Source: Kofleriaceae bacterium
GTDB lineage: Bacteria > Myxococcota_A > Polyangia > Haliangiales > Haliangiaceae
Reading direction: 5' to 3'
DNA: 23,377 nucleotides
Assembly: GCA_046597055.1 (NCBI GenBank)
Contig: JBKJLC010000220.1
Coordinates: forward strand, 1-23,377
How positions within the stretch are numbered: the stretch's first letter is position 1; each line of letters opens with the position of its first letter. A program made the translations under genes and the position numbers. The notes under the pieces are model-generated. The model was not told the origin of the DNA. It saw only the letters and a program-made list of their open reading frames with translations, and ran no database searches. This document shows, one piece after another, positions 152-21,192 of this stretch.

Positions 152-1687
152 TCACTTGGGCTGATAGACCCAGATGTGGAACATGTTCACGTCGCGGCCG
201 GCGGTGAGCGCCATCTGCTTGACGGTGAGCGTCGAGTCGGTGACCAGCTCGGCCGGGACCATCGCCGGCCAGTTACGCCAGCGGTGGACGCGGTCGGTGC
301 CGACGCACGGGACCACGCCCATCGACTTCCCGTTGATCTGGAACTCGAGCTCGTAGTCGCCATAGACGTAGTCCATGCGGCGCAGGATCACGAGCGGACG
401 CCCGGGCGTGGCGTTCAGGATCTTGAACTCGGTGAAGCCACCGACGTGGGCGCGGCCGACGCCCTCGATCACGGTGCCATCGGGGTACTTGAGCTTCTGC
501 CGCGACCGGTAGCTGTCGCGCGCCTCCTTGATGTTGAAGGCGTGCTTGGTCTCGGAGTCGGTGTCGAGAATCTTGATCTCGTCGACCATCAGCCAGGTGA
601 GGCCGTCGAGGTCCATCGACTCCTTGGGATTGGGCATGACCTTGACGCCCTCCCAGTCCTTGATGTCGGCGAGCTTGATCTCGGGCTCCTTCGGCGTCTC
701 CTTGACGTCGACCAGGAGCTTCTCGCCGGCGATCGCCGCGTTCGAGATCTCGTTCAGCTTCGACTGGAAGGCCAGCATGTTGTTGAACGACTCGGGCGTG
801 AACTTCCCCTCGGCGATGAGGCCGCGGAGGATCTCGACGTGGCGCCGGAACTCGGAGAACTCCTTCTTCTGCGCGATCGCCGGGTGGTGGGCGTCGACGT
901 CGAGCGCCATCTCGCCCTCGCTCTCGATCAGCAGGTAGAAGATGTCGAAGATGTTCCGCAGGTCGATCATGTTCGACGCGTCGAGCATGAGCGCGGTGTT
1001 GCAGCACTGGACGACGTTGTTGGCCGAGTGCACGCCGCGCCGCGAGTACTCGAGCGACGAGCGACGGATCTGCCACAGGAGGTTCTGCAGGCGCAGGCGC
1101 TGGGCGGGCGCCATGAACGAGCCGGCGCGGCCGGCCCGCGGCACGTAGCGGAGATCGATCTCGTTGGCGCGCGGGTCGGCGGCATCGCGGGCGTCGCGGA
1201 TGCGGTTGGCCCCCTTCTCGAGGTAGATGCGGCCGAGCTCGACCTCGCGGGCGATGTCGGGCTCGGTCTGCGAGATCTCGACCTTGCAGCTCTCGAGGAC
1301 GCGACGGTGGCCCTTGTACTCGAGGTTCTCCTTGTAGGCGATGAAGTCGGTGAGCTCCTCGTAGAAGCGCAGGACGATGTAGATCGTCTGCGGCAGCCGG
1401 AACTCCTCGGGGTTCACGTTCTTGATCTGCGCGTCGAACACGACCAGATCGTGGCCCAGCGCATCGACCGCGTAGCCCGGCTGGATCTCGACCGACAGGT
1501 CACCACGCGCGCGCGCGTTGACGCGCAGATCGCCGCCGTGCCCGAACGCCACTCCGGGGGAGTGGAACATCCGGTTGTGCAGCGCCCGCTTGTCGATGTG
1601 ATACTTCTCGGCCTCGTTCCAGTCCTTCTCGGTGGTGAGGAACCCCTTGAAGAAGTTGATGCGCTTGAAACCGGTTTGCTCGCTCAT
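152..1687 (-). CDS. eCIS baseplate-anchored accessory / tail-fibre-position protein (511 aa) with C-terminal beta-sandwich domain
   Basis: The N-terminus RINFFKGFLTTEKDWNEAEKYHIDKRALHNRMFHSPGV..G.DLRV...VEIQPGYAVDALGHDL resembles the anchor domain of eCIS fibre/baseplate proteins. It is the last gene after the baseplate genes and has strong GC3 codon bias. Confidence 0.75.
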   Translation of the reverse strand: MSEQTGFKRINFFKGFLTTEKDWNEAEKYHIDKRALHNRMFHSPGVAFGHGGDLRVNARARGDLSVEIQPGYAVDALGHDLVVFDAQIKNVNPEEFRLPQTIYIVLRFYEELTDFIAYKENLEYKGHRRVLESCKVEISQTEPDIAREVELGRIYLEKGANRIRDARDAADPRANEIDLRYVPRAGRAGSFMAPAQRLRLQNLLWQIRRSSLEYSRRGVHSANNVVQCCNTALMLDASNMIDLRNIFDIFYLLIESEGEMALDVDAHHPAIAQKKEFSEFRRHVEILRGLIAEGKFTPESFNNMLAFQSKLNEISNAAIAGEKLLVDVKETPKEPEIKLADIKDWEGVKVMPNPKESMDLDGLTWLMVDEIKILDTDSETKHAFNIKEARDSYRSRQKLKYPDGTVIEGVGRAHVGGFTEFKILNATPGRPLVILRRMDYVYGDYELEFQINGKSMGVVPCVGTDRVHRWRNWPAMVPAELVTDSTLTVKQMALTAGRDVNMFHIWVYQPK

Positions 1688-1754: not shown

Positions 1755-2618
1755 CTACGAGTCTTCCTCGACGACCTCGGCCCCGATGCCGATGCCGGAC
1801 CGGGTGCCGATCGAGAAGAACTCGCGCAGCTCGACGTCGCCTTCCTCTTCGAGGAAGCGCAGGTAGTAGTGCGTGTGGGCCGGCTTCTCCATCTGCACGA
1901 TCTGGTGCACGCGGAACACCAGCTCCGGCGTCACGTCGTCGAACTTCACCGGGATGGTGATGATGTAGCAGTGGGCCAGATTGACCGGCGGCAGGATCAC
2001 CGAGTCGATGCCGATGCGGGCCTCGGTCTCGACGCGAAAGCCCTTGAACGGCCAGACGTTCTCGGTGATGTCGGGCTCGTAGCCGGTGAACAGCTTCAGG
2101 AACAGCGCGAGCGCCCGCTTGGTGCCGCGGATCCGGTACAGGTCGACCGCGCGCTTGATGAGCGCGCGTTTGCGCGACTCCGGCCAGTCGAGGTCGACCG
2201 TGAAGGCCATCCACGACGCCAGCCACGGCAGGAACTCCGTCGGCGTGGTGTGCGGATCGTAGTACTTGAAGTTGCTCTCGATCTTCTTGTCGATCGCGCC
2301 GAACATGTGCTCGAAGAGGAAGCACAGGTCGCGGACGACGTTGTGGCCGATCGCGTCCGAGCGGCGGTACAGCGCCGGCAGGTGCTGCAGATAGCCGCGC
2401 CGCGCGATCCACAGCGTGACCTCGGTGCCCTCGTAGACCATCTGGCCGCGCGCCGGCCGCTGATCGACGACGGTGTCGGGCTCCTCGTAGCCCTCGCGGA
2501 ACAGCACGACCAGCTTGCCGAGGCTGGCATCCTCCATGAGGATGCGCGCCTTCTCGATCGAGAGTCCGGCGACCTCGGGGACCCGGACGACTTTGCGGTT
2601 GACGAGCTCGGCCACCAT
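1755..2618 (-). CDS. Baseplate wedge protein, P2 tail protein I-like, with N-terminal PASTA domain (287 aa)
   Basis: YLQHLPALYR, DPHTTPTEFLPWLASW, AVDLYRIRGTKRAL and EKPAHT are Tail_P2_I-type motifs. Residues ~10-73 (VPEVAGLSIEKARILM...DTVVDQRPARGQMVYEGTEVTLWIA) fit the PASTA consensus. It starts 2 nt after the baseplate J stop. Confidence 0.85.
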   Translation of the reverse strand: MVAELVNRKVVRVPEVAGLSIEKARILMEDASLGKLVVLFREGYEEPDTVVDQRPARGQMVYEGTEVTLWIARRGYLQHLPALYRRSDAIGHNVVRDLCFLFEHMFGAIDKKIESNFKYYDPHTTPTEFLPWLASWMAFTVDLDWPESRKRALIKRAVDLYRIRGTKRALALFLKLFTGYEPDITENVWPFKGFRVETEARIGIDSVILPPVNLAHCYIITIPVKFDDVTPELVFRVHQIVQMEKPAHTHYYLRFLEEEGDVELREFFSIGTRSGIGIGAEVVEEDS

Positions 2619-6747: not shown

Positions 6748-9669
6748 TCAGTCGATCTTGCCCTTCACCCCGGACGGATCGGCGTCGATCGTCGCGCGGG
6801 TGTCGGGCATGCCCGGGTCGGCGACGCTATCGATGCCGGCCTCGGTCGAGCGCTTCGCCGAGCCCTGCGCGTCGCGCGCGCCGCGGGTCGCCTCGACGCT
6901 GTCGCGGGTGCCCTCGGTCGCTGCCGCGGTCGCCGCGCCCTTGGGCGCACCGGCCGTGGTGTCGATCTTCGTGTCGATCGTTGCCCGGGTGTCGCTGACG
7001 TCGCCGACGTCATCGAGCTGACGGACCTCGCGCTCCTTGCCGCGCAGCTCTGACTGGCCACCGGTGACGTTGGCCTGCGCCGGCGCCGCCTGCGCGCGCG
7101 CCTTGCCGTCGACATCGGTGGCGCCGCGCACGTCGCCTTCGGCGCGCGCTTGCGTACCGCCCGCCTTCGATTCCGCACCGCGCTGTGCGGTCTGGGCGTC
7201 AGACAGTCCGGAGGCATCTTTGCCCTGGGCGGTCGCGCGCCCGGTCTGGGCCTCGGCCGCGGAGCCATCGGGCACGCGCCCGGTCCCCGCGCTGACGTCG
7301 CCGCTTGCCGCGGCGCCTGCGGTACCACCGCCCGCCATACCCGCGACGTCACCCGACGCCGCCGCCGAAGCCGGACGGCCGCCGACATCACCCGCGGTGG
7401 GCGCCGCGACGCTCACGCTGCCGCTCGCACCCGAGGCGACGCCCGCGCTTCCGGCGCCACCGACGCTCGCGCCGCCGACGTTGGCGGACGCCGCGCCCGA
7501 CGTGCTGGTGGCCGCGGTCGCGCCGGCCTTGGCAGCGTCACCCTTGGCACCGACCTGCGCGGCGGGCGCGCTGGTGGCCGCGCCCGCGGCACCCGAAGCA
7601 TCGCCACGTGCGGCCGCGCCGGCGGCCGCGCTGCCGGTCGCGCCACCAACGTCGCCGCTCGCGGCCGCGCCCGCCTTGGCGCCACCGGCAGCGGTGGCGG
7701 CCCCGGTCGCATCACCGGACGCGGCCGCGCCGGCCGCACCGCCACCGGCCGCGCCCTTCACGTCGCCGGATGCCGCCGCCCCGGCCTGGGCGCCTCCGCC
7801 GGCGGTGACCGCACCCTTCGCGTCGCCGCTGGCCGCGGCCCCCGCCGCGCCGCCACCGGCCGCGCCCGCGACGTTGCCACTCGCGGCTGCGCCCGCCTGC
7901 GCGCCGGCGCCCGCCGTGACGGCGCCCTTGGCGTCGCCGCTGGCCGCTGCGCCGGCGGCGCCACCACCGGCCGCGCCCGAGACATTGCCCGACGCCGCCG
8001 CGCCCGCCTGGGCGCCACCACCGGCGGCGACCGCGCCCTTGGCATCGCCGCTGGCCGCCGCGCCCGCGGCGCCGCCACCGGCCGCACCCGAGACGTTGCC
8101 ACTCGCGGCCGCGCCCGCGGCACCACCACCGACCGCGCCCTTCGCGTCACCGCTCGCGGCTGCGCCGGCCGCGCCGCCCCCCGCGGCTGCCGACACGTTG
8201 CCCGAGGCGGCCGCGCCGGCCTGCCCGCCACCGACCGCGCCCTTCACGTCGCCACTCGCGGCCGCGCCGGCCGCCCCGCCACCGGCCGCCGCCGAGACGT
8301 TGCCCGCGGCGGCCGCCTTGCCGGACGCGCTCGCCGAGCCCGACGCGCCCGCTGCGCCCGCCGCCCCGGTCGCCCCGGCCTTGCCGGACGCGCTCGCCGA
8401 GCCCGCTGCGCCCGCTGCGCCCGCCACCCCGGACGCGCCGGCCGAGCCCGACGCGCCCGCTGCGCCCGCCGCCCCGGCCGCGCCCGATGCGCTCGCCGAG
8501 CCCGACGCGCCCGCCGCACCGGCGGCGCCCGACGCACTCGCCGAGCCCGACGCACTCGCCGAGCCCGACACCCCGGCGGCGCCGGCCGCGCCCGACGCGC
8601 TCGCGGATCCGGACGCGGTCGCAGACCCGCTCACGTCCGCGGTCGACCCGCCCTGGGCCGCGCTGTCGCGCGCGGCTGGCGTCCCACCCGCAGGAGGCGC
8701 GCTCGGCGCGTCGGCGGCCGCGGCCCCCCCGGCCGCGGCTGCACCAGGCGCCGATGCGTCCCGCGACGCCGCCTCGCGCTGACCGGGCGTGCCGCCCGCG
8801 GGCGCGCCCCCGGCGTCGGTGCCCGCGGCACCGCCCGCACCACCGGCGCCGGCACCACCGCCGCCCGCGCCACCGGCCCCGCCACCGCCGCCCGCGCCAC
8901 CACCGCCGCCGCCGCCCGCGCCACCACCCGGCGTGACCTGACTGCCGGCGTCCGCGCCGGTCAGCGCCTGCACCGCGGCAACCACGGCCTGCACGATGGC
9001 CGCCATCGCGCCCATGTTGACCTGCACCTGCGAGCCGATCTTCAGCTCGCCCGAGCCCTTCATGTTGAGCGCGCCCTGCGTCGTCACCGCGATCGTCGCG
9101 CCCTCCGCCTTGATCGCGCCGGACTTGGACGTGACCTTCACGGCCTTGCCCTGGATGATCACGTTGCCCTGCGCCTTGATCGTGATGTCGCCCGACGACT
9201 CGATGCTCGTCGTCTTCTCGGCGACGTCCATCGAGATCTTGTTCTTCTTGGTCGAGTCGACGATCGTGACCTTCTCGGCACCGCTGGTGTCGTCGAAGAT
9301 GATGCGGTGACCGCTCTTCGACTTGATGACCTTGACGTCGTTCTTGCCGTCGGCGTTGGTCTCGGGCGGCGGCTCGGTCTCGTTCCACAGACAGCCGATC
9401 ACGATCGGCCGCTCGATCTCGCCGTACTCGAACACCACCAGGACCTGATCCTCCTTCTCCGGGAGGAAATAGGTCCCGCGGTCGGGTCCCGCCATCGGCA
9501 CCGCGATACGCGCCCAGAACGTCTTCTCGTCGCCGGGCAGCCACGGGTACCGGACCTTGACCCGGTAGGGCTGGCCGTCGTCCTTGTTGTCGACGACCAC
9601 GGCGAGATGCACGCCCCGAATCTTTTCGGCGCGGGTCGAGGCGGGGTGGAAGCTGTCGCGGTTGATCAC
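6748..9669 (-). CDS. gp5/gpV-type spike protein (OB fold + beta-helix) with ~750-aa Gly/Ala-rich C-terminal extension (~973 aa)
   Basis: GVHLAVVVDN...RVKVRYPWL...WARIAVPMAGPDRGTYFLPEKEDQVLVVFEYG...PIVIGCLWN and IKSKSGHRIIFDD motifs. Start placed at GTG 9669, directly after the upstream stop at 9672, rather than at 9726. Confidence 0.88.
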   Translation of the reverse strand: MINRDSFHPASTRAEKIRGVHLAVVVDNKDDGQPYRVKVRYPWLPGDEKTFWARIAVPMAGPDRGTYFLPEKEDQVLVVFEYGEIERPIVIGCLWNETEPPPETNADGKNDVKVIKSKSGHRIIFDDTSGAEKVTIVDSTKKNKISMDVAEKTTSIESSGDITIKAQGNVIIQGKAVKVTSKSGAIKAEGATIAVTTQGALNMKGSGELKIGSQVQVNMGAMAAIVQAVVAAVQALTGADAGSQVTPGGGAGGGGGGGAGGGGGAGGAGGGGAGAGGAGGAAGTDAGGAPAGGTPGQREAASRDASAPGAAAAGGAAAADAPSAPPAGGTPAARDSAAQGGSTADVSGSATASGSASASGAAGAAGVSGSASASGSASASGAAGAAGASGSASASGAAGAAGAAGASGSAGASGVAGAAGAAGSASASGKAGATGAAGAAGASGSASASGKAAAAGNVSAAAGGGAAGAAASGDVKGAVGGGQAGAAASGNVSAAAGGGAAGAAASGDAKGAVGGGAAGAAASGNVSGAAGGGAAGAAASGDAKGAVAAGGGAQAGAAASGNVSGAAGGGAAGAAASGDAKGAVTAGAGAQAGAAASGNVAGAAGGGAAGAAASGDAKGAVTAGGGAQAGAAASGDVKGAAGGGAAGAAASGDATGAATAAGGAKAGAAASGDVGGATGSAAAGAAARGDASGAAGAATSAPAAQVGAKGDAAKAGATAATSTSGAASANVGGASVGGAGSAGVASGASGSVSVAAPTAGDVGGRPASAAASGDVAGMAGGGTAGAAASGDVSAGTGRVPDGSAAEAQTGRATAQGKDASGLSDAQTAQRGAESKAGGTQARAEGDVRGATDVDGKARAQAAPAQANVTGGQSELRGKEREVRQLDDVGDVSDTRATIDTKIDTTAGAPKGAATAAATEGTRDSVEATRGARDAQGSAKRSTEAGIDSVADPGMPDTRATIDADPSGVKGKID
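7590..8315 (-). repeat. About 14 tandem coding repeats of 17 or 20 aa, AAASG[D/N][V/A]xGA...G[A/Q]AG
   Basis: Counted in the translation. N-type (AAASGNVSGAAGGGAAG) and D-type (AAASGDAKGAVTAGGGAQAG) units alternate. Boundaries are approximate. Confidence 0.85.
8315..8636 (-). repeat. About 6 degenerate coding repeats ASGSASASGAAGAAG
   Basis: Recurrent gacgcgctcgccgagcccgacgc DNA motif with a matching peptide repeat. Boundaries are approximate. Confidence 0.8.
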
Positions 9670-9671
9670 GG

Positions 9672-10394
9672 CTAACCTACGGTGGTGGTCGCGCCCTCGT
9701 ACTTGCCGGCCTGCGAGGACACGCACTCGGCCGAGCCGCTTCCCTTGAAGCTCAGCTCGCCGGTGGCCTTGATGTCCATCTTGTCATCGGCGCGGATCTC
9801 GACCTTCATCCCCTCGATCGACAGCTTCCCGTTGGGACAGAGGATGTTCAGCTTGCCCGAGGTCGACGAGATCGCGACGCCGGTGCCGGCCGCGCCGCCA
9901 CACTTGGTGGCTTCGTGCGCGTTGGGGCCGCCGCCGCCCTTGTCGAAGTTGCCGACGGTGAGCTGCAGCGCGTTGCTCTTGTCGCGCATGGAGACCTTGG
10001 ACTTCGACGAGTCATCGAGCAGGAACCGGCTGCCCGACCGGCTGCGATAGCCGCGGAACTCGTTCTTGCCGTCGGTGACCGGCTCGGGCGCGGCGTCGGT
10101 CTTGCTCCAGATGCCGCCGAGCACGATCGGCTGCCAGATGCTGCCGGCGACGAACACCACCGCGACCACGTCGTCGATCTCGGGCAGCATCCACCAGCCG
10201 AACTTGTTGCCGCACATGGGCGTGGCGAGCTGGGCCCAGTGAGCCTGGTCCTGATCACCGCCGGGCATCCACGGGAACCGCACCTTGAGGCGGCCGAGCT
10301 TCTTCTCCGCGTCCTTGTTCTGGCAGACGATGCCGTAGTAGACGCCGCACAGCGTCCCGTCGTTGCTCCACGGCCGCGCCCCGCCCGCGAGCAC
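9672..10394 (-). CDS. gp5/gpV-type spike protein, phage baseplate assembly protein V family (240 aa)
   Basis: GVYYGIVCQNKD...LGRLKVRFPW...WAQLATPMCG...GWWMLPEIDDVVAVVF..G....PIVLGGIW and RSRSGSRFLLDD, followed by beta-helix-like repeats. Confidence 0.9.
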   Translation of the reverse strand: MLAGGARPWSNDGTLCGVYYGIVCQNKDAEKKLGRLKVRFPWMPGGDQDQAHWAQLATPMCGNKFGWWMLPEIDDVVAVVFVAGSIWQPIVLGGIWSKTDAAPEPVTDGKNEFRGYRSRSGSRFLLDDSSKSKVSMRDKSNALQLTVGNFDKGGGGPNAHEATKCGGAAGTGVAISSTSGKLNILCPNGKLSIEGMKVEIRADDKMDIKATGELSFKGSGSAECVSSQAGKYEGATTTVG

Positions 10395-11529: not shown

Positions 11530-12006
11530 TCACTTCTTCTTGAACGAGGCCCGGCTGGCTTCTTTGATCTTCACGTTGCAGGTAGCGCGCACCGGCGTGC
11601 CGTCGGGGAGGAACATCGTGTACTTGGTGCCGACCGACTCGATCACGCCCTCGAAGACCGGCAGGATGCCGGCGCCCCACCGGACCTGGACCCGGGTGGG
11701 ACGCTTCCTGTCCTCGGTCCCGTTGGGGTCCATCACCATCGCCAGCGACAGCAGCCTGGCGACGTGGGTGGAGTGGACGTCGATCCCGAGCTCGTAGGTG
11801 TCGAACATGAGCTCGAACGACATCGACCGGCCCTCGGCACCGCTGAACTCGACGTGGGGCTGATCCGACTTCGAGTCCTTGTGCTTGGACCACGGCACCG
11901 ACTTGTCGACCTGGACCTCCTTCGGGTTGTACTGCGCGATGACCTCGACGTCGTTGTCCAGCCCGATGATGGTGACCTTGGTCGTCGGCGTGAAGGTGAT
12001 GCTCAT
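11530..12006 (-). CDS. CIS tube-initiator protein (Afp7-like N-terminal domain, no LysM) (158 aa)
   Basis: QYNPKEV, SFELMFDTYE, RPTRVQVRWG, FEGVIESV..KYTMFLPDGTPVRATCNVKIKE. Its ATG overlaps the upstream stop (ATGA). Confidence 0.9.
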   Translation of the reverse strand: MSITFTPTTKVTIIGLDNDVEVIAQYNPKEVQVDKSVPWSKHKDSKSDQPHVEFSGAEGRSMSFELMFDTYELGIDVHSTHVARLLSLAMVMDPNGTEDRKRPTRVQVRWGAGILPVFEGVIESVGTKYTMFLPDGTPVRATCNVKIKEASRASFKKK

Positions 12007-15000
12007 TGGAACGGGTCCCCGCTGCGCTCACGCGCGATGTCGATGAGTTTCAGCACCTCGAGGTAGACCTCGTGCGCCAGCTTGTCGATGTTAGGCTTCT
12101 CGCCGTCCTGCGCGCCGCGGGCCCCACCACCGGCCGGCGCAGCCGACGCCGGCGTCGATGAGGCGCCGCGGGTCGCCGCCGCGATCGCGCGCGACGGCGT
12201 GGCGGTCACCAGCACCAGCTCCGCGAGCGACATGCCGCTCCCTGGATTGCTCGCGTCGAGCATGCGGCGCGCCGCCGACTCGAACCACGCCGGGATCTCC
12301 GGCTCGTTACCGCCGACCTGGCTGAAGGTCCGCCCCGGCCGCGCCATCGCCTGCCTGGGCGCGGACGCCGACGCGCTGCTGGTATCGACATAGACCGGCG
12401 CCTGGGCCCGGTCGGCCGCGCGCGAGCCGCTGCTGCGCTGGTCGTCGTAGCCGCCGGCGGTCGCCAGCTCGTGGCCGCTGGGCGCGACGAACGAGCCGAG
12501 CGACTCGCCCGCGCGGGCGGCGAGCCCGGCGAGCCCGGGCCGCATGTCGACATGGACGAAGTCGTCACCGGCGTCACCGTCGGTGGCCGCGCTGGCACGG
12601 GGCGCCACCACGTCGAGGCCACCGTCGTAGATCTGCGGCAGCACTGACCAAGCCGCGACCGCGCGGTCGCGTGCGCTGAGCTGGCCGCCGTCGCTGCGAG
12701 CGAGCATCGCCATCGCGCGGGCCGCGCGCGCCGACGGCGACAGCGACTGGCCCTCGCTCGACTGCGCGAGCGCGACGTAGATCGCCTGGAAGCGGGCGCG
12801 CACCTCGGCGACCGCACCGGGGCCGGTCCAGGCGGCGCCCTCGTCGGCATCGGGTGCACCGGCGCCCTCGGCGGTCGCGCGAGCGACCCGCTCGGCGGCC
12901 GTGCGCGGGCGCAGCGTCTCGAGGAACGGGGCGGTTCCAGCCGGCGCGCTGCCGTCGGGACCCGCGGCGGACGGCGACGCGGGCGAGCCTGCCGCCTGAG
13001 CCGTCGCGCCGGAGGCGGCCAGCGCCGTCGGCGCGACGATCGGCCCGCCGGCGCCGCGGATGATGTTGCTGATCGCGGCCTGGTCGGCGCTCGGGAACGC
13101 GGTGACCCAGGTGCCGAGATCCGCGACCGCGGCTGCGGCGAGCAGCTCGAGCGCGACGATCGGCATGCCCGCCACGCCGTCGGGCGACAGCGCCTTCAGG
13201 CCGAGCGCCGCGACCGTGGCCGCCGGCCACAAGAACGCGCCGCGCGGCAGACGGCTCGAGGCGCCGGGCGCGCCCGGCATCGCTGGCATGTCCGACCACG
13301 CGACATCGACGTCCGTACCCGACGGTGCGGTCGCGAGCGGGCCGGCGCCGCCGGCCGGCGCGGAGGCACCGGGCCCTGCAGTACCCGGGGCGAGCGACGA
13401 CGTCGACGAGGTGCCGGTGAGCTGCTCGAACCGGATCGGCTCGCCGGCCGCGTCGGCCGGCGACGCCTGGGTGGCGCGCGGTGCCGGGCCACCCGCACCG
13501 GCCTGCTGGCCGTGCAGCTGGGAGGACTGCTGGGCCTGCGCCTGCTGGAACGTGCGCAAGAACGTCAGGTCGAGCGAGGTCGCCAGGCTGGCCATCGCGC
13601 CCGGTCCCGCGACCGCGAGGCGCGTCGCCTGCGCGGCGGCCGCCGGCGTCAAGCCGTATACCTTCGCCGCGAGCACCATCTCGGGCGCGACGAAGTCGAA
13701 CGACAGGTCCGCCGACGCGCGCTCCTCGGCCACCGACCACGCCAGCGCGCTCTCGGCGAGCGCGCCGGGACGACCGGCGGAGATCTGCGGCGACGGCGCG
13801 TGCATGCTGGCGGCCCCGGTGGCGAGCTCACCCGCGATGCCCGAGACCGAGCTCGCCATGCCGGCCGCACCGGCGACGGGCGACATGCCAGGCATGCCCG
13901 GCATCATGGCGGTGGTCGCGTTCGGGGTCGTCGCGCCCGAGACCGACGGAAGCGGCAACGCCGGGGCGCGGCGTGCCAGCACCGACGCCGTCGCCGGAGC
14001 GCCCTCCGCGTCGACATCGAGATCCGGCGTCCCGGGGAACGACCAGGCCGGGGCGCTCATCAGCGGCCGGTAGCCGGCGTGCGCGAGCGGCGCGGAGGTC
14101 ACGTCGGACGCGGCGAGCAGCGCCGAGCGCAGCGCCAGGAGTTCCGGCTCGAGGTTCGCGCGCTCGACTGGACGAAGCGCCGCATCGGCCGCGGCCACCG
14201 CAGCAGCCACGCCCGGTGCATCGGCGCCAGCGGCCGCATCTGCCGCATCGGCGGTCGCCGGCGTCGCCGGCGTCGCCGCGAGCTCGGCCTGCACCTCGCG
14301 AGGCTCGCGCGTCACCGCGTCGCGCATCAGGCGCGCGGTCTCGGCGCGAGACACCCCGGTCGGAGCACCCGCAGGCGCCAGGACCGGCTGGTCCGGGCTC
14401 ACGACCTGGCGCTCACCCGCCGCGAGCTGGACGGCGAGCCCCGCCGGGCTGTGATCCCAGGGGCGCGCGCCGCCACGGCGGAGCACGACGTCGACGTCAC
14501 CACCGGTCATCACCTGCGAGGGCGCCGCCTCGGCGACCCGCAGGCTCGCCGGAGTGATCGCCAGATCGCGGCGCGACCACGCGCGGGCCTCGGCCATCGC
14601 GGCGATGCCGCCGGGACCCGCGAAGGGCGTCGGCCCGCCGGGCCCGAACGGCGCACGACCCGTCGCGGGCGCGAGCGGCGAGACCACCGGCATCGACGGC
14701 GCGCCGGCGCCGAGCGCGCTCGGGGTGCCCGGTGCGAATCCGAACCCGGGGTCGAACCCAGCCCCCGGCCGGCCGGCGAACCCGGGCGCGGCGAACCCAC
14801 CCGCGCTGACCAGCGCCGCCGCGGTCGGCGCGCCGGTGAGCACGCCGATCGGCGCGGCCGAGCGGGCGAGCAGCCCGCCGAGGTACGCGGCGCTGACCCC
14901 CTCGGTGAACAGCGAGCGCGGATCGAACGTCGGGGCGACCGGCAGCGGCAGCACCCCGGCCATCGCCGGCGCCATCGGCGACGACGCGAGCCCGGGCGCG

Positions 15001-17087
15001 AGCCCGGCATCGGGCGCCGGCGGCGCCGCGATCGAGATCAGGTCGGCCATGGTCGGACGCGCGCCCCCACGGACCCGATCGGCCGCCGTCGCGCGGGGCG
15101 GCTCGGCCGCAGCCGCGGCGGCTGCAGCGGCGGCCGCGGCGCGGGCCACCGGCGAGACCGTCGGCGCCACGGGCGCGACCGACGCCGCGGCGATCGCAGC
15201 AAAGACGTCGTCCGAGACGGCCTCCCCGTCGTCGATGCGGAACGCGCGATCGGGCCGCGCGCCCGGGAACGACGGCCGCGCCGGCACCGGGCGGGCCTCG
15301 CCGGGCGCGACGAACGCGGATGCGGTGAGCGCATCGGCGAGCGTGCGCGATGCGATCGGCGGACGCAGATACACGGCCTCGGGCGCGTTCGGCGACCAGA
15401 CCCGGCCCTGCGGCGCGCTCTCGCTCTGCGCCACGTCGAGCGCGGCCAGCGCGACCGGCGACGCGCCGGCGAACCGGGCCAGCCAGCGATCGCTCCACGC
15501 GAGGTGATCTACCGCCTTGGCGCGATCGCCGGCGATCGACCCGAGCGCGGTCGCGGGCTGCGCCCACACCGGCGCGAAGCCACGCGCCGCCACCGCGGGC
15601 AGCGTCATCGCGCCGATCGGCGGCCGGTCGGCCTGCTCGGCCGCGGCGAGCGCGGGCATCGGAAACGAGCGAGCGGCCCGCGGCGCGGCGAGCGCGCCGG
15701 TCTCGGGGGCTGCCTCGGTCGCCGCCAGCATGCGCGCCATCGGATGACTGATCGCGTGCGACGCGCCGAGCGACATCACCAGGCCGCCAAGGCCAGCCGG
15801 CATCGCGACCCGCGGACCGGCCGCAGGCGCCAGGGTCGGGCCGGCCGCGGGCGCGTAGCTGCCGTCGGCACGGACGGTCGCCGCCGACGGCGACGCCGAG
15901 TGCAGCAGCAGATCGATCGCACGCAGGGCGCCGGACATGCGCGGCGACGCCGAGGCCGCGACCGCCAGGGAGCGCTCGGCCGCGGAGGCCGGCGCGGTCG
16001 TGGCGTCCGTCTCGCTCGAGCTCGAGCTCGACACGTCGGATGCGCTGGGGATCGCGGCCCCAGCCGACCCCGCCGAGGTCGGCTCCGTCATCGACGCCAC
16101 CGACGCATCCGCAGCCGCCGTCGGCGGCGCCGCATCGTGCCGGCGCTGCTGGTCGACCCGCGCGATCGCTTCCATCGCGGCCTGCATGGTCGCGCTCTGC
16201 TGCGCGGTCGCGGCGGCCGCGGGGCGGCTCGCCATCGAGTACGTCGACGGCGCCGGCGCGGACGTCGAGGTCGAGGGCGCATAGGTCGACGTCGACGGGG
16301 CGGCCGTCGACAGGGCCGACGGCGAGGTGCTCGCCTCCTCGAACGCCCGGGTCGCCGCCGGCGCCCACGGGCTCGGCGCCTCGGCCCGGCGCGCGCTGGC
16401 GAGCGCCGCGGGCGTCACCATGGTCAGGCCGGCGACGATCGGCGAGCGGTCGGCCGCGGTCGACAGCCCGCTGCGGCTGGCCGCGCTGACCGCACCGGCG
16501 ATCACCTCGGCCGCCGACGCGGCAGCGAACGACACCGACGGGCTCCACGCACGCAGGCCGCGCTGCATCTGCCCCGCGCCGCTGTCGAGCGACGACACCA
16601 GCGCATCCTCGCGCGTCGCGACCGGCGGCATCGCCGGCCATCCGGCCGACAGCGACGGCGCGACCATCTCGGGTGCGATCATCGGCATCGCCACGTCGCG
16701 CGGCGACGAGTGCGTGCTCTCGTAGGTCCCGCGGGTCGTGAGGAACTGCGGGCGCGCCTCGGCACCCTGGCGAGCCGCCGCCATCCAGTCCAGCTCGTCC
16801 TGGAACCACGGACGCGGGAACAGCCACGACACCCCCGGCGCGTTGCGCTCGCCGAGCGGATTGCCCAGCATCTGCGCACCGCGCGACTGCATCGCGACGT
16901 TCATCCACGGCGACGCGACCCGGTCCGCGAACGCCAGCGAGCCGAGACCGCGCGAACGGGTCACCGCGGCACCTTCTGGCGCCCAGCGCTCGACGTGACG
17001 TTCGCTGGTGTGCAGCGCCGAACGCGTCGCCGCCCCCTGGAAGGCAGGTCCCGACAGCGCAGCGTTGAGGGCGCGGGTCTCGGTCAT
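12003..17087 (-). CDS. Very large Ala/Pro-rich eCIS protein (1694 aa), tape-measure / Afp6-position candidate
   Basis: Uninterrupted ORF between the tube and tube-initiator genes with a GGAG RBS and a coupled stop. The C-terminal PNIDKLAHEVYLEVLKLIDIARERSG resembles the motif ending proteins at this position in eCIS loci. Function is inferred. Confidence 0.75.
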   Translation of the reverse strand: MTETRALNAALSGPAFQGAATRSALHTSERHVERWAPEGAAVTRSRGLGSLAFADRVASPWMNVAMQSRGAQMLGNPLGERNAPGVSWLFPRPWFQDELDWMAAARQGAEARPQFLTTRGTYESTHSSPRDVAMPMIAPEMVAPSLSAGWPAMPPVATREDALVSSLDSGAGQMQRGLRAWSPSVSFAAASAAEVIAGAVSAASRSGLSTAADRSPIVAGLTMVTPAALASARRAEAPSPWAPAATRAFEEASTSPSALSTAAPSTSTYAPSTSTSAPAPSTYSMASRPAAAATAQQSATMQAAMEAIARVDQQRRHDAAPPTAAADASVASMTEPTSAGSAGAAIPSASDVSSSSSSETDATTAPASAAERSLAVAASASPRMSGALRAIDLLLHSASPSAATVRADGSYAPAAGPTLAPAAGPRVAMPAGLGGLVMSLGASHAISHPMARMLAATEAAPETGALAAPRAARSFPMPALAAAEQADRPPIGAMTLPAVAARGFAPVWAQPATALGSIAGDRAKAVDHLAWSDRWLARFAGASPVALAALDVAQSESAPQGRVWSPNAPEAVYLRPPIASRTLADALTASAFVAPGEARPVPARPSFPGARPDRAFRIDDGEAVSDDVFAAIAAASVAPVAPTVSPVARAAAAAAAAAAAAEPPRATAADRVRGGARPTMADLISIAAPPAPDAGLAPGLASSPMAPAMAGVLPLPVAPTFDPRSLFTEGVSAAYLGGLLARSAAPIGVLTGAPTAAALVSAGGFAAPGFAGRPGAGFDPGFGFAPGTPSALGAGAPSMPVVSPLAPATGRAPFGPGGPTPFAGPGGIAAMAEARAWSRRDLAITPASLRVAEAAPSQVMTGGDVDVVLRRGGARPWDHSPAGLAVQLAAGERQVVSPDQPVLAPAGAPTGVSRAETARLMRDAVTREPREVQAELAATPATPATADAADAAAGADAPGVAAAVAAADAALRPVERANLEPELLALRSALLAASDVTSAPLAHAGYRPLMSAPAWSFPGTPDLDVDAEGAPATASVLARRAPALPLPSVSGATTPNATTAMMPGMPGMSPVAGAAGMASSVSGIAGELATGAASMHAPSPQISAGRPGALAESALAWSVAEERASADLSFDFVAPEMVLAAKVYGLTPAAAAQATRLAVAGPGAMASLATSLDLTFLRTFQQAQAQQSSQLHGQQAGAGGPAPRATQASPADAAGEPIRFEQLTGTSSTSSLAPGTAGPGASAPAGGAGPLATAPSGTDVDVAWSDMPAMPGAPGASSRLPRGAFLWPAATVAALGLKALSPDGVAGMPIVALELLAAAAVADLGTWVTAFPSADQAAISNIIRGAGGPIVAPTALAASGATAQAAGSPASPSAAGPDGSAPAGTAPFLETLRPRTAAERVARATAEGAGAPDADEGAAWTGPGAVAEVRARFQAIYVALAQSSEGQSLSPSARAARAMAMLARSDGGQLSARDRAVAAWSVLPQIYDGGLDVVAPRASAATDGDAGDDFVHVDMRPGLAGLAARAGESLGSFVAPSGHELATAGGYDDQRSSGSRAADRAQAPVYVDTSSASASAPRQAMARPGRTFSQVGGNEPEIPAWFESAARRMLDASNPGSGMSLAELVLVTATPSRAIAAATRGASSTPASAAPAGGGARGAQDGEKPNIDKLAHEVYLEVLKLIDIARERSGDPFQ

Positions 17088-17115: not shown

Positions 17116-17580
17116 TCAGCCGAACGTCAGGCCCTCGTGGGCGATCTCGAGCGTCTCGATCGAGATCTCGTTCTTCGAGGCGTCGAGCTCCGAGAGCTCC
17201 CACTTCACCGGCCAGCCGCGGGTGAAGGTCCACTTGGCCTTCGCCGTCGTGTCGTTCGGATTGGTGCCGAGCTGCTCGATCGTCCCGGACACGCGCACCT
17301 TGGTTCCAGCCGGGGCCAACCACAGCTCGCGCCATGCGATGAGCTCGGCCCCGCCGAACCCCCGCTTGAGGACGAGGTTCTTCCACTTGGTGGCGCCGAC
17401 CAGCTTGTGGGTCGAGTTGTTGACCCCGCCCTCGCGGTAGTCGACCACCTCGGTCTCGTAGGACAGACCGCCCACGCTCTTGAAGAAGCCGGTGACCTCG
17501 CTCAACCCGGTCACGCCCACGATGGTGACCTTGAAGCAGAAGGCGAGGAAGGGGTCGCGGCGGTCGGACGGGTTGGCCAT
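17116..17580 (-). CDS. T4 gp19-like tail tube protein (Afp1/Afp5 family) (154 aa)
   Basis: RDPFLAFCFKVTI, YREGGVN...KLVG..KW.NLVLKRG, WTF..GWPVKW...ELDASKNEISIETLEIAHEGL. AGGAG RBS. Confidence 0.95.
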   Translation of the reverse strand: MANPSDRRDPFLAFCFKVTIVGVTGLSEVTGFFKSVGGLSYETEVVDYREGGVNNSTHKLVGATKWKNLVLKRGFGGAELIAWRELWLAPAGTKVRVSGTIEQLGTNPNDTTAKAKWTFTRGWPVKWELSELDASKNEISIETLEIAHEGLTFG

Positions 17581-17602: not shown

Positions 17603-19387
17603 TCAACCAGCAGCGGGGGTATTCATCTCTTGCACCATCGACACCATGATGAACTCGGTCGGGGAGACCGGGGCCACACCGATGTCGCAGATCAAGATCC
17701 CGTTATCGATGTTCTCGAGCGGGTTCGTCTCTGCATCGCATTTTACGAAGAACGCGTCCTCACCCTTCCCTCCGGCGAGCATCCCGCGCTTCCAGAGCCC
17801 GGTCAGGAACTCGGCCACGGTGCGCTGGACGTAGTCCCATGTAGGATAGTTGTTGGGCTCGAACGTGACCCAGGCGAACCCCGACTCGAGGCTGCGCCGC
17901 AGCATGATGAACAGGCGTCGGACGGTCAGGTAGCGCCACTCCGGGTCGCTCGAGGCGGTCCGGGCCCCCCAGGGCCGTACCCCGCGCTGGATCCGGAAGG
18001 TGTTGACCGCGTCGTGGTTCAGGAGGCCGAGATCGTCCTCGCTGACCCGCAGGCTCAGGTCATCGGCGCCGACGAGCTCGACGTTTGCCGGCGAGACGTG
18101 GACCCCGTGCTCCTTGTCCTTGGCCCCGGCGACCCCGGTGACGTAGCCCGAGGGCGGCAGGTCACGCTGCACGCCCGCCACGGTCGTGCTCTTGATCCAC
18201 GGCCAGTAGTAGGCGCAGAAGGACGAGTCAGTCCGCCGGCGCCACGACTTGGCCCACTCGACCACCTGGTTCGGGGGCACCTGCTTCACCGGCGGGTGCG
18301 GGATGTCGAGGATCGCGAACCGGTCCTTCTGGTTCTCGCAGATCGCGATCATCTGGTCCTGGACCCGCTGGGCGCGCATCTCGCCCGCCGGCCCCGGCTC
18401 GCGCTGGTACAGCACCATCGCATCCGGGCAGGCCAGCATGGCGACCTCGTCGATCGCGGCCATCCCGAGCAGGCCCTTGCGCTCCGACGGCCCGAAGTCG
18501 ACGCCGACGAAGTCCTCGGGCGTGAGCTTCTCGGTGCCATCGCGACCGCCCGCCAGCTTGGTCAGCGGCAGCGACTCGGGCAGGTTGTGCGGCACCGGCG
18601 ACTTCGTGAGCAGGTCGTCGAGGCGCACCAGCCGTGACCGCTGCGAGACCACCCGCGGCGCGTAGTTGCGTGACAGCGGATGCATCTGGAGGCTCTTGAA
18701 GACCTCCTTGCGATCCTTGAGCGTCACGTGGAGGTCGAACTCGAGCACCTCCATGTGAGTCGGCGCCGCCGCTCGGTGACGGCGGTTGACCGGCGTCTCC
18801 TTGCCCCACTTGATGAGGCGGTCGCCGATCTCCGTCAGCACGACGTAGTCGGAGTTCTCGCGGTCGAAGATGCGGACCAGGCTGCCGACCTCGAAGCCAC
18901 GGGTCGACTTGACGTGGGCCTCGCCGGCCCCGATGTCGAGGTCGCGGGTCAAGAGCGTGCTGGCGCCGGTCTTGTGCTCGCACTTGACCCAGATGCTGTT
19001 GCCCCAGCGCCCCTCGTTGAGCGCGCGGATCTTGAGCGATGGCTTGCGCCAGTCGTCGACCTGGATGTGCTCGGCGCAGACCGCGTGGTCGAGGCCGATC
19101 GCCTCGTCGGCGGCCGGCATGTGCGCGATGCGCGTGATCCAGCACGGCCCGCCCCCGTTACGGAAGTGCGCGTAGACCGAATCGGACGTGTAGAACTCGT
19201 CGGCGTAGCCGAAGCCTTCGATGAACTCGTCCCAGTTGGCGACCCGAACCGGGTCGTTGATCGGCCCCTTCTGGGTCAGCCCGACGAAGCCGGTGACGCG
19301 GGTGTCCGCCACCTCGAGCATGGGACGCTCGGGCTCGCTGAACGTCGCGTACACGCCCGGGGCACGGTAGTCGGCAGCAGATCGCAT
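17603..19387 (-). CDS. Contractile tail sheath protein 2 (594 aa)
   Basis: YRAPGVY, GFVGLTQKGP, DRFAILDIP, YYWPW, PPSG, PAN, WGART..SDPEWRYLTVRRL, WVTFEPN, AFFVKCDAETNP, IGVAPVSPTEFI. Confidence 0.95.
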   Translation of the reverse strand: MRSAADYRAPGVYATFSEPERPMLEVADTRVTGFVGLTQKGPINDPVRVANWDEFIEGFGYADEFYTSDSVYAHFRNGGGPCWITRIAHMPAADEAIGLDHAVCAEHIQVDDWRKPSLKIRALNEGRWGNSIWVKCEHKTGASTLLTRDLDIGAGEAHVKSTRGFEVGSLVRIFDRENSDYVVLTEIGDRLIKWGKETPVNRRHRAAAPTHMEVLEFDLHVTLKDRKEVFKSLQMHPLSRNYAPRVVSQRSRLVRLDDLLTKSPVPHNLPESLPLTKLAGGRDGTEKLTPEDFVGVDFGPSERKGLLGMAAIDEVAMLACPDAMVLYQREPGPAGEMRAQRVQDQMIAICENQKDRFAILDIPHPPVKQVPPNQVVEWAKSWRRRTDSSFCAYYWPWIKSTTVAGVQRDLPPSGYVTGVAGAKDKEHGVHVSPANVELVGADDLSLRVSEDDLGLLNHDAVNTFRIQRGVRPWGARTASSDPEWRYLTVRRLFIMLRRSLESGFAWVTFEPNNYPTWDYVQRTVAEFLTGLWKRGMLAGGKGEDAFFVKCDAETNPLENIDNGILICDIGVAPVSPTEFIMVSMVQEMNTPAAG

Positions 19388-19493: not shown

Positions 19494-19676
19494 CTACTGG
19501 CGGCGGGCTTCGTTGATCTCGCGGTTGATGCGCGCGATCTCGCGGAGCCAGGTGTGCCGTTCCTCATGTTCCATATCGAGTACCGAGTCGAGCGGCCAGT
19601 GGAAGTGATAGGCGATGTACGCCATCTCCTGGTAAAGCTGCTCACGCGGATACGTCGCGACCGCCGCCCAGACTAC
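19494..19676 (-). CDS. DUF6760-like tail chaperone second module (gpT-like), probably reached by -1 frameshift from the upstream gene; absent from the ORF track
   Basis: Frame reads VVWAAVATYPREQLYQEMAYIAYHFHWPLDSVLDMEHEERHTWLREIARINREINEARRQ*. It is open from 19700, but the first ATG/GTG/TTG (19625) lies inside the conserved motif. Confidence 0.8.
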   Translation of the reverse strand, partial: VVWAAVATYPREQLYQEMAYIAYHFHWPLDSVLDMEHEERHTWLREIARINREINEARRQ

Positions 19677-20077
19677 CCCGGGGGCCGGCCCTCCCCACCC
19701 TCAGCCGTGACGACGGCGCCCGTCGCCATGTCGATGTCGAACTCGTGCGCGCACTTCGGGCACGCCACGTGGTGCTTCGGCGTGCCCTGCTCCTCGTTGA
19801 TCTTGCGGTAGAACTCCTGCAAGTAGGCGAGGTCGGTCGAGAACAAGTTCTCGACCAGGTCCACGGTCACCCGCTCGATGTCACCCAGCTTGGTGACCAC
19901 CCGCGACAGCAAAATGATCACCAGGTACGCGCGGTTCGACTGAACCCGGTAGTCCTGTAGCGGGATGATCTCGTCGCGCGCGGTAGCGAGGCGCATCACG
20001 CCGTCGCGATGGACGTTGCCCTCGCCGTCGACAAACCCGCGGGGCAGGCGGAAGCGAAACTCGGTCTTCATTCCCAT
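19673..20077 (-). CDS. Tail assembly chaperone (gpG-like) of eCIS (134 aa)
   Basis: TEFRFRLPRGFVDGEGNVHRDGVMRLATARDEI...LLSRVVTKLG...ENLFSTDLAYLQEFYRKIN...CPKCAHEF matches the small protein that follows the tube gene in eCIS loci. Confidence 0.85.
   Translation of the reverse strand: MGMKTEFRFRLPRGFVDGEGNVHRDGVMRLATARDEIIPLQDYRVQSNRAYLVIILLSRVVTKLGDIERVTVDLVENLFSTDLAYLQEFYRKINEEQGTPKHHVACPKCAHEFDIDMATGAVVTAEGGEGRPPG
19676..19682 (-). promoter_or_regulatory. Putative -1 ribosomal frameshift heptamer C CCG GGG
   Basis: X XXY YYZ pattern in the correct phase immediately before the TAG at 19675-19673. An SD-like GGGGAGGG lies at 19696-19689. Confidence 0.65.
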
Positions 20078-20195: not shown

Positions 20196-21110
20196 TCAGA
20201 CCCAGGTCCGCTTGAGCCGGCAACCCTCCAGCATCCACTCCACAGTCAGGATGGCCATGCCGTCCGCACCACCCTTGAGCTCGGGTGCCCAGGTGAACTT
20301 CGAAGGCGCAGTGGCCTCGAACGTGAAGCTTGCGAGCTCCTTCGCCATCGTCTGGTCCTTGACAAACACTGCCCAGTCTTCGAACTCGTGATCTTCAATA
20401 ATGCCGTTTTGTAGCACCTTGACGCACAAGTCTTGGACCGGCAGATAGTTGTGCGACGAGTGCTCGGTCGTCAAGCCGGAGACCTCCCACGCCGCGTAAT
20501 GCTTCGTGGACAACCGCATCATGCCGGTATGCTCCTCGGCAATCTTGGCCACGCTCTTTGGCAGCGTAATCGCTGTCACGCCGAGCGGATCGATGCCGCC
20601 AGGCATCCCGCTCGGCTCGAAGTTCGAGACGAGCCAGTTCTTGGCCTTCTTGCTCAGCGCGGCCTTGATGACGTTGTTGTCACCGGCAGCGTACGTGGCG
20701 CCTTCGCACACGGCGGTGACGGTCATCTCCATGTGCTTCTTGCCGTCCTTGGCATCGAGCTTGGGAAACGACAACTCCTTCACGAGGCAGCCCGCCATGT
20801 CGATGCGGCGCTTGGCCTTGTAGTTCTGGTCAGCCAGGATCACGGCCATCTGGAATTCGGTGCAGCTCTTGTTGAGCACCGATTCCATGACAGTCCACAT
20901 CGGTCCCGCATCCGCCATGTTGACGACGAGCTTGGGGTCGCCGAACTTGACGTTCCCGTGCATCTGCTTGGTCTCGCCGCCCGGACCGAGCGCCTGCGAA
21001 ATCTTTTCGGTCTCCAGGGTCGGCGCCGTGAAGGACGACAGGTAGCCAGGTTCGCCGTTATCGATCGTGCACATGAAGTTCGAAACGTTGTATCCAGCTT
21101 TCAGTGCCAT
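20196..21110 (-). CDS. Divergent tail-tube-like protein with two tandem gp19-like domains (~304 aa)
   Basis: Occupies the tube slot after sheath 1. Each half begins with VSNF and ends with a P.L.....EG segment (ELSFPKLDAK...VCEG; FTWAPELKGG...MLEG). Start placed at 21110, 8 nt after AAGGGAG, not at 21170. Confidence 0.7.
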   Translation of the reverse strand: MALKAGYNVSNFMCTIDNGEPGYLSSFTAPTLETEKISQALGPGGETKQMHGNVKFGDPKLVVNMADAGPMWTVMESVLNKSCTEFQMAVILADQNYKAKRRIDMAGCLVKELSFPKLDAKDGKKHMEMTVTAVCEGATYAAGDNNVIKAALSKKAKNWLVSNFEPSGMPGGIDPLGVTAITLPKSVAKIAEEHTGMMRLSTKHYAAWEVSGLTTEHSSHNYLPVQDLCVKVLQNGIIEDHEFEDWAVFVKDQTMAKELASFTFEATAPSKFTWAPELKGGADGMAILTVEWMLEGCRLKRTWV

Positions 21111-21166
21111 GCTCATCGCTCCCTTGCGTGTAACGGTTTGAGTCGTTGCACGGAGGCTGCTGAGAA

Positions 21167-21192
21167 TCATCGAGCCCTGTCAGGCTCGATGA
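21167..21192. promoter_or_regulatory. Perfect 10-bp hairpin in the leader of the tandem tube gene
   Basis: tcatcgagcc-ctgtca-ggctcgatga. Confidence 0.5.

Follow-up and report, generated by a model that had tools for sequence, protein, structure and literature searches.

Gene order and the chaperone/DUF6760 junction

The window, i.e., the whole stretch of DNA that was analysed (23,377 nucleotides, nt), comprises the entire contig C74 of an 8.4-Mb Kofleriaceae genome, in which the chaperone and DUF6760 each occur once. Across the window, Pfam identified an eCIS gene set consisting of sheath, tube, tube initiator, VgrG/spike, gp25, baseplate J, and Pvc16. On the minus strand, the order is Pvc16, sheath, tube, a 134-aa ORF, a DUF6760 frame, a second sheath, and a second tube, followed by a 1694-aa ORF, the tube initiator, VgrG, two spike OB-fold genes, gp25, baseplate J, and Tail_P2_I. 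Neither capsid or terminase genes nor an Afp15-type AAA+ ATPase were found among the 16 window ORFs scanned. The features of the chaperone region are as follows (coordinates, strand, feature, and basis).

20196..21170, minus: upstream tube gene, gp19-like, probably two tube domains (PF06841 E 2.6e-10; weak second domain E 2.7e-5)
19673..20077, minus: predicted tail assembly chaperone G, 134 aa (PHROG 508 E 3.9e-8; structure model)
19701..19703, minus: in-frame TGA closing the -1 frame upstream (sequence)
19689..19702, minus: internal SD-like sequences (GGAGG and GAGGGT)
19676..19682, minus: predicted -1 slip site C CCG GGG, whose core G GGG abuts the stop (sequence, clade comparison)
19673..19675, minus: stop TAG that ends the short product; with GGG in the P site, it occupies the A site (sequence)
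19494..19676, minus: putative -1-frame extension T, 60 aa, an 8-residue linker plus DUF6760, GpE-like (PF20546 E 6e-15; PF06528 E 1.5e-4)
17603..19387, minus: second sheath gene, directly after the extension (PF04984, PF17482)
17116..17580, minus: second tube gene, gp19-like, 154 aa (PF06841 E 4e-28)
12003..17087, minus: Ala-rich ORF, 1694 aa, between tube and tube-initiator genes (position)

Several other genes of the region have unusual layouts. The first tube gene (324 aa) looks like two tandem gp19-type domains, and two further double-tube ORFs lie on other contigs of the same genome (G000 C286 and C252). One spike OB-fold gene (9672-10394) is short and adjoins a second (6748-9726, minus strand) with a very long Gly/Ala repeat region. 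The Tail_P2_I protein (1755-2618, minus strand) starts with an N-terminal PASTA domain, and a 511-aa ORF (152-1687, minus strand) has a weak CIS13-family N-terminus (E 6e-11, far under the cut-off).

Judged by profile and fold matches, the 134-aa ORF is a tail-assembly chaperone, as the initial annotation had proposed. In addition to the PHROG 508 match, comparison of its structure model (pLDDT 84.9) with 48,161 chains (VIA) returned only three matches with Z ≥5, all of them modest (under 8), namely, 3klu YqbN (Z 6.7, rmsd 4.2, 90 aligned), the HK97 chaperone 2ob9 (Z 6.2, rmsd 4.0, 85 aligned), and 3fgx (Z 5.4, rmsd 6.6, 88 aligned); YqbN and 3fgx are, we assume, likewise tail chaperones. The protein is laid out as a chaperone fold (residues ~1-98), a CPxC zinc-ribbon-like motif (C106 and C109, both invariant in 65 sequences), and a Gly-rich tail. 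Two distant homologues weakly match PF10109 (E 0.002 and 0.06). For the chaperone itself there was no Pfam or NCBIfam match, no PDB sequence match, and no usable Atlas match, and a tblastn search of 50,697 phage records returned none. Its nearest relatives, among the matches listed, are encoded by Kofleriaceae/Haliangiales MAGs. The contigs of the three DNA runs all disagree with the window at two bases inside the gene (window positions 19912-19913), well away from the junction and with no change of frame.

The chaperone ORF (20077 to 19673, minus strand) ends in CGG CCC CCG GGG TAG, and the stop directly follows GGG in all 82 distinct junctions of the window's clade. Upstream, the -1 frame is closed by a TGA at 19703-19701, so that a shift could take place only within the 25 nt preceding the chaperone stop. 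This frame is open from 19700 to 19497, with its own stop at 19496-19494, and has no ATG, GTG, or TTG ahead of the Tyr codon at 19652, which belongs to a conserved Tyr-Pro, the first ATG being at 19625. If ribosomes slipped back by one base at C CCG GGG, CCG would re-pair to CCC and GGG to GGG, and reading would go on with GTA GTC TGG, giving a predicted fusion of 134 + 60 = 194 aa with R-P-P-G-V-V-W-A-A-V-A-T-Y-P-R across the junction. Just 5' of the heptamer lies the SD-like sequence GGGGAGGG (19696-19689), with GGAGG ending 7 nt upstream of it, and a weaker GAGGGT ends 14 nt upstream. What had been read from the letters of this region (the end of the 134-aa ORF, the phase of the heptamer, the limits of the -1 frame, the SD-like sequence, and the lack of a start before the peptide motif encoded in the -1 frame) holds in every coordinate. 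A sequencing indel at the G/C run had been named as a possible artifact. Contigs of three of three DNA runs (from one study, possibly the source) span the junction gap-free, and the same phase recurs in 82/82 clade junctions; the junction is therefore not an assembly indel.

The extension matches DUF6760 (PF20546) well and Phage_P2_GpE (PF06528) at a level below the Pfam cut-off; likewise, 14 of 91 aligned DUF6760 members match PF06528 at E ≤0.01, all below curated cut-offs. Within the linker, changes counted by codon position of the -1 frame fall mainly at third positions (87, versus 17 and 8 at the other two), which indicates coding constraint upstream of the ATG at 19625. We considered this ATG as a start and rejected it: it is kept in only 5 of 82 clade junctions, and its use would remove an invariant Tyr and Glu. 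In RefSeq, DUF6760 is a separate gene that overlaps by 4 nt, and its annotated start is ATA in Nostoc and CTG in S. cadmiisoli and Kitasatospora. Among 13 candidates for longer proteins carrying the extension, there were three hits and none was a chaperone fusion, which is weak evidence.

A single natural fusion was found in the second eCIS of a same-genus genome, in which a 289-aa ORF directly follows a tube gene (G150:C18, L294:10445-11314, minus strand; the same ORF as L200:245-1114). According to hhalign, its N-terminus is chaperone-like (probability, 85.7%) and its C-terminus is DUF6760-like (93.9%), both in the same frame, and the protein weakly matches T4_baseplate (PF12322/PHROG 150). 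This one example shows that chaperone and DUF6760-like parts can work as a single chain.

Reading frame and slip site across 293 loci

We assembled 293 loci that were picked by protein similarity and not by their junctions: the best 80 of 292 genome-contig matches, 89 DUF6760 matches from a phylum search, 24 of 46 plasmid records (leaving out 15 near-duplicate S. clavuligerus records and 7 others), the best 80 of at least 595 metagenome stretches, 19 viral-collection loci, and the window. These loci gave 281 chaperone/DUF6760 pairs with 275 distinct junctions; many are close kin, such that the counts below overstate independence. A conserved -1 overlap had been set beforehand as a test of the recoding proposal. 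Relative to the chaperone, DUF6760 lies in the -1 frame at 272 of 275 junctions, in frame 0 at three, and in the +1 frame at none. Of the frame-0 exceptions, L128 has a chaperone with an internal indel and an otherwise normal junction; L203, a metagenome contig, looks like a homopolymer error, because its G run and C run are both shorter than usual; and L200 is the different, natively fused 289-aa protein. Carriers identified by name, all from the 24 plasmid records except the myxobacterial ones, include Nostoc, Brasilonema, Streptomyces, Kitasatospora, Rhodococcus, Paenibacillus, Paraburkholderia, Burkholderia, Rhizobium, and Treponema, which cover five phyla besides the window's own and hence six bacterial phyla.

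An in-phase G_GGG is present at 267 of the 272 junctions, compared with 98 of 29,916 codons (0.33%) in chaperone bodies, and its occurrence at the junctions is far beyond chance. The distance from G_GGG to the DUF6760 Tyr is five to six codons (nine in the window's clade, with one outlier of 12), and the chaperone stop floats zero to nine codons after G_GGG. The codon that follows it (n = 267) is GAA in 122 loci, GAG in 21, GGA and GGG in 18 each, and a stop in 88; outside the window's clade, the site is mostly G_GGG_GAA. The frames overlap by ≤19 nt in 110/272 loci. Within the window's clade, the junction reads CCG GGG-stop in 82/82 cases, even though, within the gene bodies, only 51 of 516 Gly codons are GGG, while the codon preceding GGG elsewhere is mostly CTG, CCG, GTG, or TCG. 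This variety suggests that the essential event is probably re-pairing of the Gly-tRNA; tandem slippage at C_CCG_GGG, as far as the codons indicate, is probably an option special to the window's clade. The slippery heptamer proposed initially stands in its G_GGG core, but the whole C_CCG_GGG belongs mainly to the window's clade and is not family-wide.

Fifteen of the chaperone hits lacked a DUF6760 partner. Four of them lie at contig ends; the other 11 are three from Deinococcus, three short paralogues from cyanobacteria, two fragments of a Treponema gene interrupted by an IS, and three further cases. Inspection by eye of the final eight codons of these 11 showed no in-phase G_GGG; the three Deinococcus chaperones, in particular, have neither DUF6760 nor a G run.

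Some of these loci have further peculiarities. In cyanobacteria, the short paralogue (L123:2998-3755, L128:2995-3660, and L126:2998-3321) lacks both CPxC and the extension and, in two cases, directly precedes the copy with the frameshift junction. On a Treponema succinifaciens plasmid (L134:4545-6208), an ISAs1 transposase interrupts a second copy of the chaperone, in which the G_GGG_GAA junction and the extension are nonetheless kept.

The five junctions without G_GGG include L292, which has a plain ATGA overlap, and two haloarchaea, Haloferax (L116:3513) and Halogeometricum (L120:3519), in which the chaperone tail is long and acidic and an ATGA overlap leads into an 89-aa DUF6760 gene. In both haloarchaea, a G_GGA_AAY also lies in phase, three codons ahead of the stop, and thus coupling and frameshifting are both possible there.

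Stimulatory elements and competing explanations

SD-like sequences precede the slip site across the family, in keeping with what had been noticed in the window. An SD 5-mer lies ≤29 nt upstream in 197 of 267 loci, compared with 250 of 2,746 control windows (9%), and pairing with what we take to be the anti-SD core sequence exceeds that of synonymous controls in 75-95% of the loci of each group. SD-to-GGG spacing varies from 6 to 24 nt, and 70 of 267 loci have no SD 5-mer. In the window's clade, a strong SD lies 18 nt before GGG in 69 of 82 junctions, which in most is 14 nt from the heptamer. An SD 9-14 nt upstream is described as optimal for -1 shifts (PMC5009743), a range that takes in the 14 nt of most of the clade; the window's best GGAGG, at 7 nt, falls short of it, and the weaker GAGGGT, at 14 nt, lies within it.

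Downstream of the slip site, the window's clade and the other clades differ. More specifically, a hairpin begins 5-6 nt past the heptamer in 177 other-clade loci, with a folding energy of -21.4 kcal/mol versus -10.8 kcal/mol for synonymous controls (mean z -3.44; control region, z -0.17). Codon choice within it is skewed, Val being GTA in 150 of 165 cases (background, 6%) and Pro being CCC in 154 of 166 (background, 34%), and one pair covaries (Watson-Crick in 57% versus 28% if independent). This evidence consists of per-sequence folding and pair counts, and RNAalifold found no consensus structure in 174 other-clade sequences; as with the SD counts, related loci are not independent and the figures overstate. 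In contrast, a 3' hairpin is unsupported in the window's clade relative to synonymous controls (mean z -0.23 for 82 loci; window, z -1.0). A hairpin or pseudoknot was considered there as well, and a 13-pair stem can be drawn, but it is no more stable than the synonymous controls.

The best explanation of these observations is that a programmed -1 ribosomal frameshift yields both G (134 aa) and G-T (194 aa), which we regard as very probable. We infer the frameshift itself from the sequence and its comparison across loci. The main competing explanation, which we consider unlikely, is that DUF6760 is made as a separate small protein by translational coupling or re-initiation at a start overlapping the stop (ATGA/GTGA or a non-canonical ATA/GTA/CTG), in which case the G run would be its ribosome-binding site. 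A 4-nt overlap would likewise give the -1 frame, and genes of this kind are called by RefSeq; furthermore, a canonical start lies between slip site and Tyr in 99 of 267 loci, in which re-initiation may therefore occur too, and ATGA without G_GGG is present in the two haloarchaea and L292. Coupling can also coexist with frameshifting in homologous genes (PMC3711429). However, 168 of 267 loci, including the window, have no ATG, GTG, or TTG in that interval (114 of 272 have none in the whole open frame before Tyr), and the presence or absence of a canonical start changes at least 55 times over a 271-row tree, a count without a shuffled baseline. The codon overlapping the stop takes nine different values across the family, and RefSeq had to resort to ATA or CTG. 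In the window's clade, this codon is Val in 82/82 junctions (GTA in 41, GTG in 41, with at least 20 switches on the tree), and TGA, the stop required for GTG, makes up 75% of the stops in the window's genome and only half of those at clade junctions.

TAA, for its part, is the stop at 28 of 82 junctions of this Kofleriaceae-like clade and at 117 of 3,703 stops in the window's genome.

The position of the signals also argues against coupling. In the window's clade, the G run touches the stop with no spacer and the strong SD lies those 18 nt before GGG, whereas in other clades a strong hairpin follows a few bases past the supposed start. Moreover, the phase of the G run and its spacing from the domain are constant, and its spacing from the stop is not. 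Homologues with a conserved independent start and a random relative frame had been named as the pattern that would speak against recoding, and neither feature was found. Thus, the comparison favors the initial reading of the small DUF6760 'gene' as a recoded extension over an independently translated protein.

Transcriptional slippage, in which RNA polymerase would add one G or C within the C/G run and normal translation would then give G-T, is a considerably weaker candidate and in our view improbable. The homopolymer run (G4-G7) is conserved at the junction, and orthologous genes can switch between the two mechanisms (PMC3711429), but the run is short, its codon phase is fixed in 267/272 junctions, and the upstream SD and the hairpin 5-6 nt downstream are ribosomal signals. 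Finally, a sequencing indel or a decayed fused gene has a negligible probability and is refuted for practical purposes by conservation across phyla, since 272 of 275 junctions agree and contigs of all three DNA runs have no indel, and the metagenome contig L203, with both parts in one frame, has the shortened runs of a homopolymer error.

Under the favored ribosomal frameshift, most ribosomes would release the 134-aa chaperone G at the stop and a minority would shift at C CCG GGG into DUF6760. The Gly-tRNA, here possibly together with the Pro-tRNA, would re-pair one base back while a pause imposed by the stop or the hairpin slows the ribosome; in the window's clade, the stop in the A site may supply this pause in place of a hairpin, and the SD would act as a stimulator by pairing with 16S rRNA. 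The related heptamers C_CCG_GGC/GGU shift poorly (PMC5009743), which fits a low ratio of fusion to short product or could mean that very little fusion is made. By analogy to lambda (PMC5009743), many copies of G would then cover a long protein of the tape-measure type, for which the 1694-aa ORF is the probable candidate, and the less abundant G-T would link that protein to tube subunits, starting tube polymerisation.

The gene order provides candidates for both partners. In the window, the chaperone gene follows a tube gene, and the sheath and second tube genes separate the chaperone pair from the 1694-aa ORF, such that no recognised tape-measure gene adjoins the pair. In lambda and many tailed phages, as the initial annotation noted, such a frameshift lies upstream of the tape measure gene; here, the pair is not directly upstream of a recognised one. 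The 1694-aa ORF (25% Ala) has no match in Pfam, NCBIfam, or PHROG; counterparts of 1,000-1,900 aa occur in many clade relatives, which have only a C-terminal helix in common. Several actinobacterial loci carry an ORF of ~1,000-1,240 aa directly after the chaperone/DUF6760 pair. From its position, the 1694-aa ORF is a candidate tape-measure-like client of the chaperones. Likewise, by analogy to lambda, the second tube protein is a candidate binding partner of the T extension; a complex prediction for the extension with this 154-aa protein scored 0.00 and is uninformative either way.

In the three Deinococcus loci, a helix like that of the relatives of the 1694-aa ORF is, by eye, a small separate ORF after the chaperone.

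Relation to known systems

The initial annotation had regarded this frameshift as not well documented for eCIS, and our literature searches found no description of it. 'Frameshift' does not occur in the main texts of the CIS papers searched, nor in the supplements that were searched for some of them, and the passages returned from CIS papers do not call the chaperone/DUF6760 genes tail chaperones. DUF6760 is unmentioned in the literature searched, a body that lacks most subscription papers and some supplements and in which an earlier listing may have gone unnoticed. Thus, although the mechanism is known from phages, its setting, breadth, and signal architecture in eCIS/CIS appear to be undescribed.

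Taken together, the observations allow a broader reading, for which we see about even chances: many lineage II CIS, in at least six bacterial phyla and perhaps haloarchaea, would keep the phage G/G-T frameshift as a cell-encoded cassette (SD, G_GGG, and hairpin or stop), DUF6760 would be a T domain rather than a protein family, the pair would load tape-measure-derived cargo or effectors into the tube, and the efficiency of the shift would set the chaperone ratio and so particle assembly. To our knowledge, few conserved -1 frameshifts occur in bacterial genes that are cell-encoded and do not belong to transposons (dnaX and copA), and the eCIS frameshift would span several phyla with interchangeable stimulators, i.e., a hairpin or an adjacent stop. 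Two conserved unknown genes of widespread injection machines would gain a function and a corrected gene model, and the Pfam family DUF6760 would become a predicted recoding product; in practice, deletion, tagging, or recoding of the chaperone gene would silently alter a second product. If the broader reading is true, a tape measure is in use even where systems have been described as having none. The proposed frameshift predicts a tape-measure-like client for systems that reportedly have no tape measure (PMC6899500, PMC10066040, and PMC11566945), and such a client would fit the tape-measure-related effector Tme (PMC11126660).

The closest parallel is lambda gpG/gpGT, in which G binds the tape measure protein and forms a coat on it, T attaches to the major tail subunit, and the G:GT ratio is ~30:1 (PMC5009743). 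Both systems have a short chaperone with a C-terminal extension in the -1 frame reached via a slippery site near the stop, and in both the pair belongs to a tail-tube module. Unlike in lambda, the eCIS pair is cell-encoded and part of a contractile injection system, the chaperone has CPxC, the slip core is G_GGG, and the gene in the window is without a recognised tape-measure neighbour.

P2 gpE/gpE' (PF10109 Phage_TAC_7 and PF06528) shares the contractile tail, and weak matches connect it with both DUF6760 and the chaperone homologues; we take PF06528 to be the frameshift-only part of gpE/gpE'. The P2 slip site is a T run, whereas that of eCIS is a G run, and all family matches are below curated cut-offs.

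In actinobacteriophages, GGGGGAA is a motif across the frameshifts annotated by SEA-PHAGES, nearly all of which are in tail chaperones (PMC10885494). An identical heptamer is present in 122 of 267 eCIS loci, whereas the window's clade uses C_CCG_GGG-stop; eCIS sites further differ in carrying a conserved SD-like element and, outside the window's clade, a hairpin. The tail-chaperone cluster tested with GeneTack is HK97-like and of phage origin (PMC3711429).

Within eCIS, the 289-aa T4_baseplate-like protein resembles the frameshifted pair in its position after the tube gene and in its chaperone-like and DUF6760-like ends, but both of its ends are read in a single frame without a frameshift, and it has an additional region between them. 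The lineage II systems (CIS-Sc of S. coelicolor and the CIS of S. davawensis and H. borinquense) have the same gene set from sheath to Pvc16. The H. borinquense locus has the same chaperone/DUF6760 pair, and SCO4251 of S. coelicolor would, by position, be the orthologue. In dbeCIS, lineage II is described as having no afp14 tape measure and as having conserved genes without known domain (PMC6899500). In S. davawensis, Tme lies upstream of the baseplate genes (PMC11126660), a position like that occupied by the 1694-aa ORF in the window.
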